DNA of 64,000 nt, taken from sequence record MT446388.1; one strand, given 5' to 3'. Each line of letters begins with the position of its first letter. The first letter of the stretch is position 1. The notes beneath the pieces were generated by a model. It ran no database searches, was not told where the DNA came from, and saw only the letters and a list, made by a program, of their open reading frames with translations. Below, one piece after another: positions 424 to 64,000 of the stretch. Both the position numbers and the translations under genes were made by a program. The stretch is from Escherichia virus TH10.

Positions 424-1899
424 GTGAGAAGAATGGCAGAAATTACAGAAACACAAGAAAGCTTACCACCATTTAGAATGGGTGAAGTAGGTTCTTTGGG
501 TCTGAAGGTTAAGAATGGAAGAATCTATGAAGAACCTCGTCAGGCACTAAGGTTCCCTGAAAGTATTAAAACTTTCCAATTAATGATGCGTGACCCTGCT
601 GTAGCAGCATCTGTAAATATTATCAAGATGTTTGTCAGAAAAGTCAACTGGAGATTCGTACCTCCAAAGGGAAAAGAGCAAGACCCTAAAATGCTTGAAA
701 GAGCAGACTTCTTTAATTCTTTAATGGATGACATGGAGCATGATTGGGCAGATTTTATTAACTCTGTAATGTCATTCTGCACTTATGGGTTCTGTGTTAA
801 CGAGAAAGTTTATAAGAAGCGACAGGGTAAAAAAGGAAAGTACCAGTCAAAATTTGATGATGGTCTCATTGGATGGGCTAAATTACCAATCAGAAACCAA
901 TCAACACTTGATAAGTGGTATTTTGACGAAGACTTTAGAAAAGTTACTGGTGTTAGACAGAATCTGAGAAATGTTTCACATATTGCTGGAGCAATTAATC
1001 TTGGAGAAAGACCGCTAACAAGAAAACTTCCACGAGCTAAATTCATGCTGTTTAAGTATGATGATGAATATGGAAACCCAGAAGGTCGTTCACCATTACT
1101 TAATGCCTATGTACCGTGGAAGTATAAAGTTCAGATTGAAGAGTACGAAGCTGTTGGTGTTTCAAGAGACTTGGTAGGTATGCCAAAAATTGGTTTACCA
1201 CCAGATTATCTGGATGAAAATGCAGAACCTGAAAAGAAAGCTTTCGTACAATACTGCAAAACTGTTGTTAACGATATGATTGCTAATGATAGAGCAGGTT
1301 TAATCTGGCCTAGATATATCGACCCAGATACTAAAGAGGATATTTTCGAGTTCTCATTAGTTTCTAGACAGGGTGCTAAAGCATACGATACAGGTTCTAT
1401 TATTGATAGATATTCCAAGCAGATTATGATGGCATTTATGTCAGATGTTCTTGCTATGGGTCAGTCAAAATATGGTTCATTCTCTCTTGCAGATTCTAAG
1501 ACAAGCTTACTAGCAATGTCAGTAGATATTCTGCTTAAGCAGATTAAGAACGTAATTAACCGTGATTTAGTTGCACAGACTTATGTTCTTAATATGTGGG
1601 ACGATGAAGAACATGTACAAATCACTTATGATGATATCGAAACTCCAGACCTTGAAGCAATTGGTTCTTATATCCAGAAGACTGTTGCAGTAGGTGCTTT
1701 GGAAGTTGACAAAGAGCTATCTAACAAGCTTAGAGAGCATATTGGTCTCCCTCCTGCTGATGAGTCTCAGCCAGTATCTGAAAAGCTTTCTCCAAATAGT
1801 CAAAGCCGTTCAGGAGATGGTTATAAGACCGCTGGAGAAGGTACTGCAAAGACACCTTCAGCGAAAGACCCAAGCACAGCAAATAAGGCAAATAAATAA
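424..1899 (+). CDS. portal protein (true start may be ATG at 433)
   Basis: 491-aa ORF directly after terminase and before prohead protease; size and position typical of portal. Confidence 0.6.
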   Translation: MRRMAEITETQESLPPFRMGEVGSLGLKVKNGRIYEEPRQALRFPESIKTFQLMMRDPAVAASVNIIKMFVRKVNWRFVPPKGKEQDPKMLERADFFNSLMDDMEHDWADFINSVMSFCTYGFCVNEKVYKKRQGKKGKYQSKFDDGLIGWAKLPIRNQSTLDKWYFDEDFRKVTGVRQNLRNVSHIAGAINLGERPLTRKLPRAKFMLFKYDDEYGNPEGRSPLLNAYVPWKYKVQIEEYEAVGVSRDLVGMPKIGLPPDYLDENAEPEKKAFVQYCKTVVNDMIANDRAGLIWPRYIDPDTKEDIFEFSLVSRQGAKAYDTGSIIDRYSKQIMMAFMSDVLAMGQSKYGSFSLADSKTSLLAMSVDILLKQIKNVINRDLVAQTYVLNMWDDEEHVQITYDDIETPDLEAIGSYIQKTVAVGALEVDKELSNKLREHIGLPPADESQPVSEKLSPNSQSRSGDGYKTAGEGTAKTPSAKDPSTANKANK

Positions 1900-6966: not shown

Positions 6967-7540
6967 AAAAGGTCTAGTTAGAACCTTAGTGGATGTTATT
7001 GGTCACAGACTAGCTCGTGATAAAAATAATAGGCCAAACGTAATTAGAGCTTACCCTTCTGATAACTCAAATGACAAAGGTTTAAAACCTGACCAGCCAT
7101 TTATTACCGTATATTGTCAAGATGCTGCAACACCTTATGGTTGGGTTCTTGATAAGTTTGTTGAGGATGATGTAGTTTGCTACAGAATTGCTTTTCAGAT
7201 TCCAGTGTTAATTACGGTGAATGGTAAAGGTGCTCACAGTATTATGCTTGAGCTTAAACAACGATTAGAGATGAGTTCAGTCAGAGATTTAATCCTTGAA
7301 GAAACAGGAGCTACAGTACTAGACACTGGAGCAATCCCTAATGATTACACTTATCTCAATACAGATTTCGAAAATTCTGCACCTCTTGTTGTAACTCTTG
7401 TAAAAAACTCAGTCCTGAAAGATGAACGTGGAAGTATTATTGAGCGTGTCATTGTTGATGGTGAGTTAGTTTATGAAGAAGGACAAGAGCCACCAGAATA
7501 TACTATCCATCTAGATGTAGACTCCAAAGGGGTAAAATAA
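6941..7540 (+). CDS. hypothetical structural protein (neck/tail completion candidate)
   Basis: ORF directly upstream of putative sheath gene. Confidence 0.4.
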   Translation: MQLETAELEKGLVRTLVDVIGHRLARDKNNRPNVIRAYPSDNSNDKGLKPDQPFITVYCQDAATPYGWVLDKFVEDDVVCYRIAFQIPVLITVNGKGAHSIMLELKQRLEMSSVRDLILEETGATVLDTGAIPNDYTYLNTDFENSAPLVVTLVKNSVLKDERGSIIERVIVDGELVYEEGQEPPEYTIHLDVDSKGVK

Positions 7541-10068: not shown

Positions 10069-18081
<8,013 letters not shown>

Positions 18082-24937: not shown

Positions 24938-25237
24938 TTAATCTGCCAACCTTAAATTAAAATTAACACCAAATTTTTCACAGACACCCAACATATACTC
25001 AAGGGAGACATTACCAGTGAGGTGGATTATGTTGGATACACGAGCCTGAGAGATACCACAAATTTTAGCAACTTGCTCTTGAGAAAGACCTCTGGATTTA
25101 ATCTCTCTCTTAAAACGATGTGCAACGAAATCTCTCATTTCGTCTACATCCATTGGACAAATATAACTCTCCATTTCAGCCTCTCTGTCAGCCTCCCAAT
25201 CATCTTGTGGAGCATAAGGGTCAAAAACCTCATTCAT
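24938..25237 (-). CDS. helix-turn-helix DNA-binding protein (start likely ATG 25237, 8-nt overlap with upstream gene)
   Basis: C-terminal LSQEQVAKICGISQARVSNI HTH-like segment. Confidence 0.45.
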   Translation of the reverse strand: MNEVFDPYAPQDDWEADREAEMESYICPMDVDEMRDFVAHRFKREIKSRGLSQEQVAKICGISQARVSNIIHLTGNVSLEYMLGVCEKFGVNFNLRLAD

Positions 25238-59484: not shown

Positions 59485-59499
59485 TAAGTAATTTCTTAA

Positions 59500-59526
59500 A
59501 AGGCTGCTTCGGCGGCCTTTTTTATT
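59500..59526 (+). terminator. rho-independent terminator (UUCG tetraloop)
   Basis: ggctgc-ttcg-gcggcc-ttttttt. Confidence 0.7.
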
Positions 59527-59584
59527 TGTATTTTGTGCAGAGTGCTGTATAATTGTTGTCACGATAAACTAAACAGGAGAACCA

Positions 59585-60806: not shown

Positions 60807-61282
60807 GAGAAGAACTTATGAACAATATCATTACGGTAGCACTGGACGATACGGCAAACAAATCTGAAGTAGTTCGTAAAATGATTCAAGGTAACTTTGA
60901 AGGTAAAATTTTCCGTGCTGTTAATGTAAAAGCTGACGGTAGCATTCGTGAATATCGTGCATTGTTGAACGTTAAGAAGCACGTAAAAGGTGTTGGTTCA
61001 ACGACTGCACACAAAGAAAACCTGATGACTATCTATGATATGGGTAAGGCTTCAGAGTTAGGTGCTGAAGGTATCGTTAAAGAAGGTGCTCCGTATCGCT
61101 CTTTCAATCTGGAAACTACTCTTATGCTTTCCTTTACAAGTGGTTCCAAAACAATCACTTATCTCTTTACTGATGCTGCAACGGTATCTGCTATTAAGGA
61201 TAGCACTGTCAAAGCTGGCGTAGTTGCTGCTGCAAAAGCTTCTTCGATGGCTGCGAATATCCTTGCTAAAGTCCTCGGTTAA
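60803..61282 (+). CDS. hypothetical protein
   Basis: 159-aa ORF followed by terminator. Confidence 0.45.
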   Translation: MREELMNNIITVALDDTANKSEVVRKMIQGNFEGKIFRAVNVKADGSIREYRALLNVKKHVKGVGSTTAHKENLMTIYDMGKASELGAEGIVKEGAPYRSFNLETTLMLSFTSGSKTITYLFTDAATVSAIKDSTVKAGVVAAAKASSMAANILAKVLG

Positions 61283-61292
61283 GGTTAAGATA

Positions 61293-61318
61293 CAGGCTCC
61301 TTCGGGAGCCTTTTTCAT
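61293..61318 (+). terminator. rho-independent terminator (UUCG tetraloop)
   Basis: aggctcc-ttcg-ggagcct-ttttc. Confidence 0.7.
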
Positions 61319-61334
61319 TTTAGGAGATTGTTAA

Positions 61335-62856: not shown

Positions 62857-63642
62857 ATGGGTATTGTAAAAATCATCAATGGTGATATCTTTAATGCTTT
62901 TGATAAAGGCAAGTTTGATGTCATTGGACACGGTTGCAACTGTATGAACTTAATGGGTGCAGGTATTGCTGACAAGATTTCTAAACTTTACCCAAAAGCC
63001 TATGAAACTGACACAGAAGTTTACTTGTACGCAGGTGGCATTGGACATAAACCCTGTGAGGATTTACTAGGTAATATCTCTGTAGCACGTTTAGAACAAG
63101 GCCGTATAGCTAACCTCTACACTCAGCTTAAAACTGGTAAAGATGCCAGATACAGTGCTTTAGAGTCATCTTTGAAGAAACTTAACAGGTACTGCGAAGT
63201 CAATCAGTTGAAGAAAGTTGGTTTACCTATGATTGGTGCAGGTATCGGTGGACTTGACCATCAAGCTGTCACCGTTATCATCAATCAGGTAATGAAAAGC
63301 GTAGACGTTTACTTATATGTCTATGAAGGTGAGATGTACCACAAGTTACGCTCAGGTTGGAAGAACTATTGTGAACCAGAATATTTTGCAGGTATAGCAG
63401 TGTTCACAGATAATGCAGTTACCCTCTTCAGACGTAGAAAGGGTAAGATACATCAAAGTAACCCTCCGGTTGAAAAGATGTCTCTAAGTAACGCTCTAGT
63501 TACCCGCCTGTCAAAGAGCAATAATCGTATTGCTGTGACATTCGGTAGTGATGCAGATGCTTACATTTATGCGAGAACTGATGAGAATGTTAAGGCAATC
63601 TTCTCATCACCAGAAGTTACCTTCTTAGACGCAAAGAACTAA
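62857..63642 (+). CDS. macro-domain protein (ADP-ribose binding/hydrolase candidate)
   Basis: INGDIF...FDVIGHGCNCMNLMGAGIADKI and later VGLPMIGAGIGGLD match the macro-domain NAAN..GGGV and PxISTG blocks. Confidence 0.5.
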   Translation: MGIVKIINGDIFNAFDKGKFDVIGHGCNCMNLMGAGIADKISKLYPKAYETDTEVYLYAGGIGHKPCEDLLGNISVARLEQGRIANLYTQLKTGKDARYSALESSLKKLNRYCEVNQLKKVGLPMIGAGIGGLDHQAVTVIINQVMKSVDVYLYVYEGEMYHKLRSGWKNYCEPEYFAGIAVFTDNAVTLFRRRKGKIHQSNPPVEKMSLSNALVTRLSKSNNRIAVTFGSDADAYIYARTDENVKAIFSSPEVTFLDAKN

Positions 63643-63715
63643 GAAACTGTGTAGAATATACACAATAGACTAAGCCTTTCTTATCTGGTAAATTTTTCAG
63701 GTAAGGGGGGCTTTT

Positions 63716-63894
63716 TCATTTCAGAATTGTGCAGGTAAAAGTCTGGACAGAAATCTGTGGAGAGAATTTTGAACTCCAAAGGGAAAATTCATTTTCAAAC
63801 TGTGCAGGTAATCTCCAAAGAGCTTTTTCATTTTCAAAACGTGCAGACCCCGCTCAGGTCGGGCAAGAAAAATCATTTTAGAATTGTGCAGGTA
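63716..63894 (+). repeat. four direct repeats of ~22 bp (consensus TCATTTTCARAAYTGTGCAGGTA)
   Basis: Copies at 63716-63737, 63789-63810, 63828-63847, 63873-63894. Confidence 0.8.
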
Positions 63895-63918
63895 GGTTTT
63901 TATAGACAGCCAGACCAA

Positions 63919-63949
63919 CCCCTCTCCCCCTCTTACTCCCCCTCTCCCC
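63919..63949 (-). other. G-quadruplex-capable tract on minus strand
   Basis: plus-strand cccctctccccctcttactccccctctcccc gives four G4-5 runs separated by 3-7 nt on the minus strand. Confidence 0.6.
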
Positions 63950-64000
63950 AAAAGTCAAGAGAAAAATTTGTAGAGGATTGAAAAATAATTCTTGATTTGT

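Follow-up and report, generated by a model that had tools for sequence, protein, structure and literature searches.

Iteron origins, represented by lambda ori with its four O-protein sites, by the Rep iterons of P1, F and pSC101 and by T4 oriE, comprise three to six direct, asymmetric repeats of about 18-22 bp with conserved ends and a variable middle. The repeats follow each other at about 22 bp in one non-coding locus per replicon, with AT-rich DNA, a GC-rich patch and a strong promoter alongside, and in P1, F and pSC101 an extra copy serves as operator in the rep promoter. A different non-coding repeat cluster, the iss region of phage T5, is located about 8% from one genome end, where it sets off small genes driven by host promoters; it is made up of inverted repeats together with paired DnaA boxes and lies inside a 10-kb terminal repeat. 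T4 middle promoters, which number in the tens, combine a MotA box at -30 with a good -10 element and have no -35 element.

Here we analysed an array of four direct repeats at the right edge of a 64,000-nt stretch of Escherichia virus TH10 DNA (MT446388.1; referred to as the window). The array resembles iteron origins in the number, length, orientation and asymmetry of its repeats, in their conserved ends and variable middle, in its restriction to one non-coding locus, in having AT-rich DNA, a GC-rich patch and a strong promoter alongside, and in the presence of an additional copy over a promoter. It differs from them in its irregular spacing of 35-112 bp, in having neither a recognisable Rep or initiator gene nor sequence similarity to known iterons, and in its AT-rich neighbour, which is surpassed in instability by other parts of the genome and has been lost from one sequenced variant. 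With the T5 region it shares the position relative to one genome end, the small host-promoter-driven genes that follow and, in the version found in Erwinia phages, DnaA-box-like sequences, but the repeats are direct, the terminal repeat measures only ~0.6 kb and genes resembling T5 A1 or A2 were not found. The additional copy, a solitary fifth core with its centre at about -29.5 of a promoter that combines TATAAT with a poor -35 element, recalls the architecture of T4 middle promoters; its motif, however, is unrelated and there are five sites per genome, and Felix O1 is not reported to have a MotA or AsiA homologue (PMC3185647). Finally, a C-rich tract following the repeats matches the patterns of both canonical G-quadruplex (G4) motifs and H-DNA mirror repeats as far as prediction goes, but is polymorphic.

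The repeat array and its genomic setting

The large terminase gene covers the first 1.5 kb of the window, and its last 1.4 kb matched 245 phage records with 80-95% identity, nearly all of them from Felixounavirus. The window is thus an arbitrary 64-kb slice of the genome of a Felix O1-like myovirus, and its source is a Felixounavirus. The repeats sit in a non-coding gap of ~0.5 kb (about 520 bp) that contains no credible gene and that, in terms of the wV8 annotation, falls between gene 12 and gene 14. To the left the gap is bounded by the terminator of the rIIA-to-macro-domain gene block, whose T-run leads straight into repeat R1 and whose counterpart in wV8 is annotated as a terminator. As the stem contains several G-U pairs, as read from the sequence, this terminator should be active on the + strand only. 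To the right the gap reaches as far as the right-terminal cluster of early genes and ends at the first of its strong early promoters. This promoter, just beyond the window and seen in wV8, is of the strong host type (TTGACT-17-TAGTAT), is preceded by an AT-rich, UP-like stretch and heads a series of small early genes that each have a copy of a repeated promoter unit. Going rightward, the direct repeats are followed by a conserved AT-rich block, a GC-rich patch and the strong promoter with its UP element. The GC-rich patch, located to the right of the window, is of alternating purine/pyrimidine sequence, a character that is kept in every lineage.

Table 1. Features of the repeat locus and of the solitary fifth core (window coordinates).
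Feature	Position	Strand	Remarks
Solitary fifth core TTATTTGTATTTTGTGCA	core 59522-59539, with -10 to 59553	+	right after rIIB terminator
Macro-domain gene ("phosphatase", gene 12 of wV8)	62857-63642		last gene of rIIB-downstream operon
Intrinsic terminator of rIIB-downstream operon	63672-63716	+	17-pair stem and T tail
Repeat R1 TCATTTCAGAATTGTGCAGGTA	63716-63737	+	conserved in Felix-, Moogle-, Susp- and Kolesnik-virus
Repeat R2 TCATTTTCAAACTGTGCAGGTA	63789-63810	+	preceded by CTCCAAAGGG and AAAAT
Repeat R3 TCATTTTCAAAACGTGCAGACC	63828-63849	+	preceded by CTCCAAAGAG and CTTTT
Repeat R4 TCATTTTAGAATTGTGCAGGTA	63873-63894	+
Polypyrimidine (+) / G-rich (-) tract	63919-63949	-	predicted canonical G4 motif; variable cassette
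Start of AT-rich block, AAAAGTCAAGAGAAAAATTTGTAG to GAAAAATAATTCTTGA	63950-64000	.	near-invariant in alignment of Felix- and Moogle-type sequences

The initial annotation had described four 22-bp direct repeats within about 180 bp, and we recovered them as four ungapped 22-mers, all in direct orientation on the + strand and all inside 180 bp, with start-to-start spacings of 73, 39 and 45 (Table 1). Its 23-nt consensus, in contrast, is one base too long and therefore fits just a single copy at up to three mismatches. The invariant core of the repeats reads TCATTT-N7-GTGCA and has a T5 or A5 tract in front. Beyond the core, GGTA continues the sequence in R1, R2 and R4, and the spacer motif CTCCAAAGRG is common to R2 and R3. 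A -10-like hexamer, TATAGA (63901-63906), which misses the final T, is located exactly 10 nt beyond the GTGCA of R4, and in Felix, Susp and Moogle sequences TRTAGR is found 10 nt past GTGCA after both R1 and R4. Each site is bipartite and asymmetric, with TCATTT and GTGCA ~12.5 bp apart from centre to centre and in the same orientation throughout, an arrangement that would place contacts in two successive major grooves.

The core is highly specific to these sites. Scanning the window with the pattern T[CT]ATTT-N7-GTGCA gave five matches, i.e. R1 to R4 and the fifth core, and the complete 88.4-kb genome of the relative Pr103Blw likewise contains five matches, all on the + strand, as compared to 0.18 expected by chance from its composition. 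With a position-weight matrix the array sites scored 29-35 bits and all other positions 12.9 bits at most. Tandem Repeats Finder did not detect anything at the locus, being blind to these repeats as the copies are interspersed.

The fifth core lies 4.2 kb upstream of the array. A perfect -10 element (TATAAT, 59548-59553) starts 8 nt after it, so that the core spans positions -38 to -21 of a promoter whose -35 element is poor. Core sequence and promoter position are the same in Felix and in Moogle/Susp sequences while the flanking bases are different; in Erwinia phage phiEa21-4 the fifth core is not present. Both the fifth core and R1 begin within the T-run of an intrinsic terminator, and the terminator tails of this phage all read CTTTTT(C/T)ATTT, a sequence shared with the first half of the core. 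For the fifth core only the correctly spaced GTGCA thus needs explaining; it is unlikely to have arisen by chance, and it is conserved.

Conservation of the array and variability of the C-rich tract

In all sequences of Felixounavirus, Mooglevirus, Suspvirus and Kolesnikvirus (Erwinia phages) that we read or aligned, the array is located after the terminator of the macro-domain gene, always as one locus per genome, and its copy number ranges from three to six across the Felix-like lineages examined. Identity to UAB_Phi87 was 85% in the cores as compared to 61% in the spacers for Susp/Moogle, and 68% as compared to 37% for Kolesnik sequences. Repeat spacing is 73/39/45 in Felix, 75/41/45 in Moogle and Susp and 37/37/39 in the Erwinia phages, and ranges from 35 to 112 bp among relatives, whereas the 18-bp length of the core never varies. 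A few Felixounaviruses (BPS17L1, Si3 and phiWec177) have lost R2, leaving three copies. A T5 or A5 tract precedes each core in the copies of Felixounavirus, Susp/Moogle and Kolesnikvirus.

More distant relatives were reached via distant homologues of the macro protein (34-36% identity). One of them, L169, has six copies of TCAT(A/T)T-N7-GTGCATA in 47-bp units, with the T5/A5 (W5) tract missing before the cores; L170 carries TCATT(C/T)-N7-GTGCAG four times within 813 bp of non-coding DNA; and L194, an 88-kb IMG/VR contig, has about five copies. In all three, TGTTA/TAACA repeats phased at ~11 bp directly follow the array. As one or several genes intervene between the macro gene and the array in L169 and L170, the constant partner of the array is the downstream early promoter and not the macro gene.

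Scanning IMG/VR with a single-copy pattern was swamped by chance matches, and a gapped two-copy scan of the same resource returned the array only from Felix-like contigs, all other matches being in-frame coding repeats. A seeming second location in Moogle-type records, suggested by BLAST, proved to be only an off-register alignment of repeat on repeat. Nothing similar to the array was found in the E. coli genomes and plasmids searched, and the motif strings did not occur in any relevant paper of the searchable literature. Thus, by sequence comparison, the array occurs across at least six lineages with the core conserved but not the spacer, and it is an undescribed yet conventional-looking cis element. 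The term "iteron-like", used in the initial annotation, is apt for a direct, asymmetric array at one locus with cores conserved across genera and drifting spacers.

The C-rich tract behaves differently. Its complement, GGGGAGAGGGGGAGTAAGAGGGGGAGAGGGG, is the sole canonical G4 motif (at least three G per run, loops of 1-7 nt) on either strand of the window, as compared to 0.01 expected per dinucleotide shuffle, with four G4-5 runs on the - strand and loops of 3, 7 and 3 nt. Read from the sequence, the tract is at the same time a perfect homopyrimidine mirror repeat, CCCCTCTCCCCCTC-TTA-CTCCCCCTCTCCCC, with 14-nt arms and a 3-nt centre, an arrangement that favours an intramolecular triplex (H-DNA). 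The G4-capable tract had been placed immediately after the repeats; the motif is indeed canonical, but it begins 24 nt after R4. In 140 phage records an unrelated 55-bp cassette (cassette B) replaces the tract, which is absent from more than half of the Felixounavirus records; some cassette-A phages have one G run fewer, and the Erwinia phages only have a short C-rich stretch with three runs, CCCACCCTCCCCTC. As the tract can be swapped for unrelated sequence, G4 or triplex formation is not the conserved function, and the notion of the G4 as an integral part of the element did not stand up to the comparison. Judged by its distribution among the records, the tract is an optional accessory outside the conserved mechanism.

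In the variant LF110P2 (OZ035782) a deletion of ~640 bp extends from inside the tract to the next CCCC, removing the AT-rich block together with the early promoter and the early gene that comes first, while the array is retained. If this assembly represents a viable phage, the deleted parts are dispensable. The tract is a natural presence/absence polymorphism of a G4/H-DNA-prone sequence, at which a deletion endpoint and assembly breaks are also found, and the two cassettes make it possible to compare cleanly what such structures cost a phage genome.

Coding, RNA and genome-end interpretations

Frames are open over the repeats on both strands and in several frames, and several records have ORFs annotated here, on differing strands (e.g. 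wV8 gp13 on the + strand and a 76-aa ORF on the - strand). If these were small protein-coding genes, however, their peptides would change frame between close relatives, as the spacing differences between genera amount to 2 or 4 nt and are not multiples of three; moreover, the variable positions of the core are contiguous instead of falling on every third base. The frame shifts bear out the initial assessment that the two ORFs built from the repeats are probably not genes. The repeats might also be functionless, neutral duplications of a terminator tail, with which they share CTTTTT(C/T)ATTT, but the 18-bp core is kept even between lineages that share only 34-65% identity in the adjacent macro-domain protein. 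We consider it highly improbable that the array is either coding or neutral.

We also asked if the element acts at the RNA level, either with the repeats as motifs on read-through or antisense RNA or with the C tract as a Rho loading site that backs the intrinsic terminator. The region is less folded than shuffled sequences, with MFE z-scores of +1.4 and +0.5 in an analysis covering both strands, and the tract is C-rich and G-poor like rut sites. An RNA running leftward across the array could be driven from the AT-rich block, which carries TTGACT on the - strand (63953-63958): in cassette-B phages this hexamer is paired at 17 bp with TGgTAGCCT to give a strong predicted promoter, whereas in cassette-A phages its partner, 17 nt away, is the poor -10 element TAAGAG (63930-63935). 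Against an RNA-level function, the cores are preceded by T5 in some copies and by A5 in others, two tracts that are interchangeable as regards duplex shape but not at the level of RNA; no conserved fold or covariation was found, the RNAalifold energy being weak; an Rfam search with permissive thresholds gave only sub-threshold microRNA and snoRNA noise; and a Rho site would not be conserved since cassette B is not C-rich. We therefore regard an RNA-level element as unlikely.

A boundary of the terminal repeat or a packaging signal had been another suggestion. Such a pac- or cos-like terminase recognition site would be in line with the short array of asymmetric repeats, which resembles the R sites of lambda cosB, and with the ends of one GenBank record and several metagenomic contigs, which fall in or shortly after the C tract. 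These ends are better explained as assembly breaks at a low-complexity, structure-prone sequence, and the terminal repeats are located elsewhere. Felix O1-like phages have direct terminal repeats (DTRs) of about 0.6 kb (PMC4837284, PMC8303462). In Pr103Blw the PhageTerm-defined DTR is annotated at 1-581 and 87841-88421, and the array is found at 81.55-81.73 kb. This DTR maps 6.3-6.7 kb downstream of the array; when located in UAB_Phi87, it falls 6.3 kb to the right of the array. The end fragments of UAB_Phi87 from Bal31/SpeI analysis, 4322 and 2819 bp, sum up to 7141 bp (PMC4837284), in agreement with the 7176 bp that we obtained from the 6568 bp between the two SpeI sites on either side of this region plus the 608-bp repeat. 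Mapping the fragments correctly relies on a second SpeI site at record position 13014; a genome end at the stop codon of the macro gene (11820 - 2819 = 9002), which we also considered, was discarded as the partner SpeI fragment did not fit. With the DTR 6.3-6.9 kb downstream in Pr103Blw and UAB_Phi87, a role of the array as terminal boundary or terminase site is next to inconceivable. From the same positions it follows that 6.7-6.9 kb, corresponding to 7.6-7.9% of the genome, separate the array from the right end.

Probable protein binding and possible roles of the array

The fixed site length, the variable middle, the T5-or-A5 flank and the single orientation give the repeats the appearance of a binding site on duplex DNA, and we conclude that the array probably binds protein. 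The putative binding protein is most likely encoded by the phage. Regarding its function, our leading guess, which we put forward tentatively, is that R1 to R4 are cis-acting sites at which one sequence-specific protein docks on double-stranded DNA, with an origin-type complex in the leading role; a purely transcriptional array ranks as a close second. In the origin-type arrangement the protein would load on the three to six sites and form an iteron-like nucleoprotein complex that heads the right-terminal early-gene block. The AT-rich block, the helically phased TGTTA repeats of the distant lineages, the GC-rich patch and the strong early promoter would then be the neighbouring DNA that supplies unwinding and transcriptional activation for the initiation of replication. 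The fifth core would act as an operator through which the same protein may set the expression of the operon between both loci.

We next considered which protein might bind. In phiEa21-4 the cores match the DnaA box (TGTGNAWAA; TTWTNCACA) at eight of nine positions in all four copies (TGTGCATAG and CGTGCATAA), and the cores of Felix, Moogle and Susp (TGTGCAGGT) at only six of nine. None of the consensus sequences of IHF, Fis, CRP, LexA, sigma-54, sigma-E and sigma-32, nor those of the marbox, PhoP, NtrC, Tus/Ter, ops, nut boxA and EcoKI, fits all copies when compared by eye. The small neighbouring genes, including those between the fifth copy and the array, encode no recognisable DNA-binding domain or signature. 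Among the proteins encoded nearby, gp5 (60818-61282) is 81-86% identical between Felix and Moogle/Susp and was modelled as a stand-alone WYL-like barrel, and the macro protein has an unassigned, beta-rich domain at its C-terminus. Further away, an Xre-type helix-turn-helix (HTH_3) protein is encoded at 24941-25237 on the - strand.

Several observations count against an origin-type complex. No initiator was found, and the least stable duplex DNA is elsewhere, i.e. next to the terminal repeats and in a divergent region at 50.4 kb in Pr103Blw coordinates, by the DNA polymerase and primase genes, with the array region ranking at the 0.3-2.5 percentile of duplex stability. The right flank is deleted in OZ035782, the spacing exceeds that of classical iteron origins and is less regular, and neither the fifth core, which is missing from phiEa21-4, nor the W5 tract, which is missing from L169, is universal. 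GC and AT skew of the complete genome do not shift at the array; GC skew, however, is uninformative about the origin as it follows transcription only.

Alternatively, the cores could serve purely transcriptional control, as operator or activator sites for a phage regulator, e.g. the Xre-type protein, or a host regulator, with replication uninvolved. The fifth copy would then control the promoter after rIIB, R1 and R4 with their TRTAGR hexamers would be weak, factor-dependent restart promoters, and R2 and R3 would provide cooperative occupancy or act as a roadblock or insulator between the upstream operon and the early cluster. This reading is in keeping with the position of the fifth core at -38 to -21, exactly the location taken by class II activators, by the T4 MotA box (near -30) and by repressors, with the start of the fifth site and R1 in terminator T-runs, with the fixed 10 bp that separate TRTAGR from R1 and R4 in Felix, Susp and Moogle, and with the orientation of every site along transcription. 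The phage does encode an HTH_3 protein, and in cassette-B phages the strong predicted leftward promoter abuts the array. Xre-type proteins, however, normally bind palindromes and not asymmetric 18-mers, and five sites per genome do not make a general class of middle or late promoters. The TRTAGR hexamers are devoid of the T at -7 that sigma-70 needs, and no -10-like element is present at R2, R3 or any of the Erwinia-phage copies. The idea of a promoter array, also raised in the initial annotation, found no backing: no repeat carries a -35/-10 pair that passes a sigma-70 scan, as consensus scans with 16-18 bp spacing gave no hit in the repeats and weight-matrix scores were low. The one promoter to pass is TTGACT-17-TAGTAT, which lies beyond the window and was seen in wV8. 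Furthermore, the array is 190-270 bp away from the early promoter, and such sites are lacking at the dozen other early promoters located downstream. Taken together, a purely transcriptional role is possible but rather unlikely.

The position of the array suggests yet another role by analogy to the injection stop signal of T5, i.e. a DNA-entry pause or membrane-anchoring signal. The right end would enter first and its early genes would be expressed while transfer halts at the repeats until an early product releases it. The distance of the array from the right end compares well with the first step of T5 transfer, which covers 7.9% of the genome and stops in a non-coding repeat region carrying DnaA boxes; the stretch from the array to the end comprises only small early genes behind strong sigma-70 promoters, and the Erwinia-phage cores come within one position of a DnaA box. 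The Felix-type cores, in contrast, do not come as close to it, the terminal cluster encodes no protein of more than 180 aa and no Pfam domain that would correspond to T5 A1 or A2, two-step transfer is without report for Felix O1-like myoviruses, and the T5 model is itself a hypothesis. We thus consider an entry pause very unlikely. If true, it would mean staged genome delivery in a group of contractile-tailed phages, with the terminal early genes delivered and expressed before the remaining DNA, and it would define a new class of stop-signal sequence, TCATTT-N7-GTGCA.

The Felix O1-like phages, which belong to the classical typing phages, find wide use in biocontrol and therapy. According to the Felix O1 genome paper their temporal regulation is not understood (PMC3185647), and our literature search found no transcriptome study of Felix O1. 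The array, a short cis element in every lineage examined, provides a concrete handle here, e.g. as bait for its binding protein, and in the engineering of Felix O1-like phages it would be a sensible locus to avoid, or to exploit.

Terminator tails and the repeat core

The final 4.7 kb of the window contain three intrinsic terminators, all ending in one shared tail, CTTTTT(C/T)ATTT. The first half of the core common to the four direct repeats R1 to R4 has this sequence too. The start of R1 lies within a terminator T-run, and the same holds for a fifth core copy that stands alone, directly 3' of the rIIB terminator. This fifth copy overlaps positions -38 to -21 of a promoter whose TATAAT is perfect and whose -35 element is poor. 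The copy is kept in Felix and Moogle/Susp phages; phiEa21-4 lacks it.

We scanned the genes near the array and the six-gene block around the gene of an Xre-type helix-turn-helix protein for DNA-binding domains, and this protein was the only one scanned with a recognisable sequence-specific DNA-binding domain. It is a candidate regulator, not linked to the repeats.

Features in and around the array (window positions unless a record is named)
Feature	Position	Strand	Remarks
Xre-type helix-turn-helix protein	24941-25237	-	99 aa; Pfam HTH_3, E = 5e-10
Solitary fifth core copy	59522-59553		TTATTTGTATTTTGTGCA
Terminators with shared tail	59498-59531, 61294-61321, 63672-63723
CTRTAGAGA / TCTGTACAGA motif	63743-63766; L001 (wV8) 7140-7170; L011 1150-1175; L170 4655-4670
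Cassette site	63919-63949
LF110P2 deletion	L134 (OZ035782.1) 1790-1810		window equivalent 63944
Conserved TTGACT	63953-63958	-
Record or contig ends	equivalents of about 63930-64060		L002 (MN850610), L139, L142, L144, L160, L168
GC-rich patch	L001 7420-7440		outside window, about 64020-64040 by extrapolation
TGTTA/TAACA repeats	L194 5600-5760; L170 4685-4750; L169 6075-6114	- (L194)
Terminal early cluster	L001 7500-13300		wV8 8.1-13.9 kb; units annotated DR_1 to DR_9 in wV8

Small motifs around the array

A second small motif, CTRTAGAGA / TCTGTACAGA, recurs after R1 and, in L170, one of the most distant lineages carrying the array, after R4; it is palindromic in BPS17L1 and degenerate in the window (CTGGACAGA, CTGTGGAGA). 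On the stretch from the array to the early promoter every lineage has a GC-rich patch of 10-12 bp with alternating purines and pyrimidines, its sequence differing among lineages (GTGTGCGCAC, GCGTACACGC, CACGCGCACG, ACGCGCAC); the patch may be Z-DNA-prone or a further binding site. Short TGTTA/TAACA repeats, spaced by about 11 bp or multiples thereof, follow the array in the three most distant lineages, and none occur in Felix, Moogle or Erwinia phages.

The C tract and the early-gene cluster

The C tract to the right of the array is one of two alternative cassettes found at this site and at the equivalent place in relatives. The other is an unrelated 55-bp sequence present in 140 phage records; combined with the conserved TTGACT it yields a leftward promoter that is predicted to be strong (TTGACT-17-TGgTAGCCT). 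In one assembly of Felixounavirus LF110P2 a deletion of ~640 bp starts inside the C tract and extends to the next CCCC, which lies in a stem-loop before gene 15. Lost with it are the early promoter, the first early gene and a conserved block of AT-rich DNA. One GenBank record and several metagenomic/Logan contigs stop inside the C tract or a few tens of bases beyond it, suggesting a coverage or assembly problem at that sequence and not a physical end.

The terminal early cluster, which lies beyond the right edge of the window, consists of small genes, each located behind a repeated promoter-plus-hairpin unit. The arrangement recalls T4-type hyperplastic regions with their promoter-early stem-loop units.
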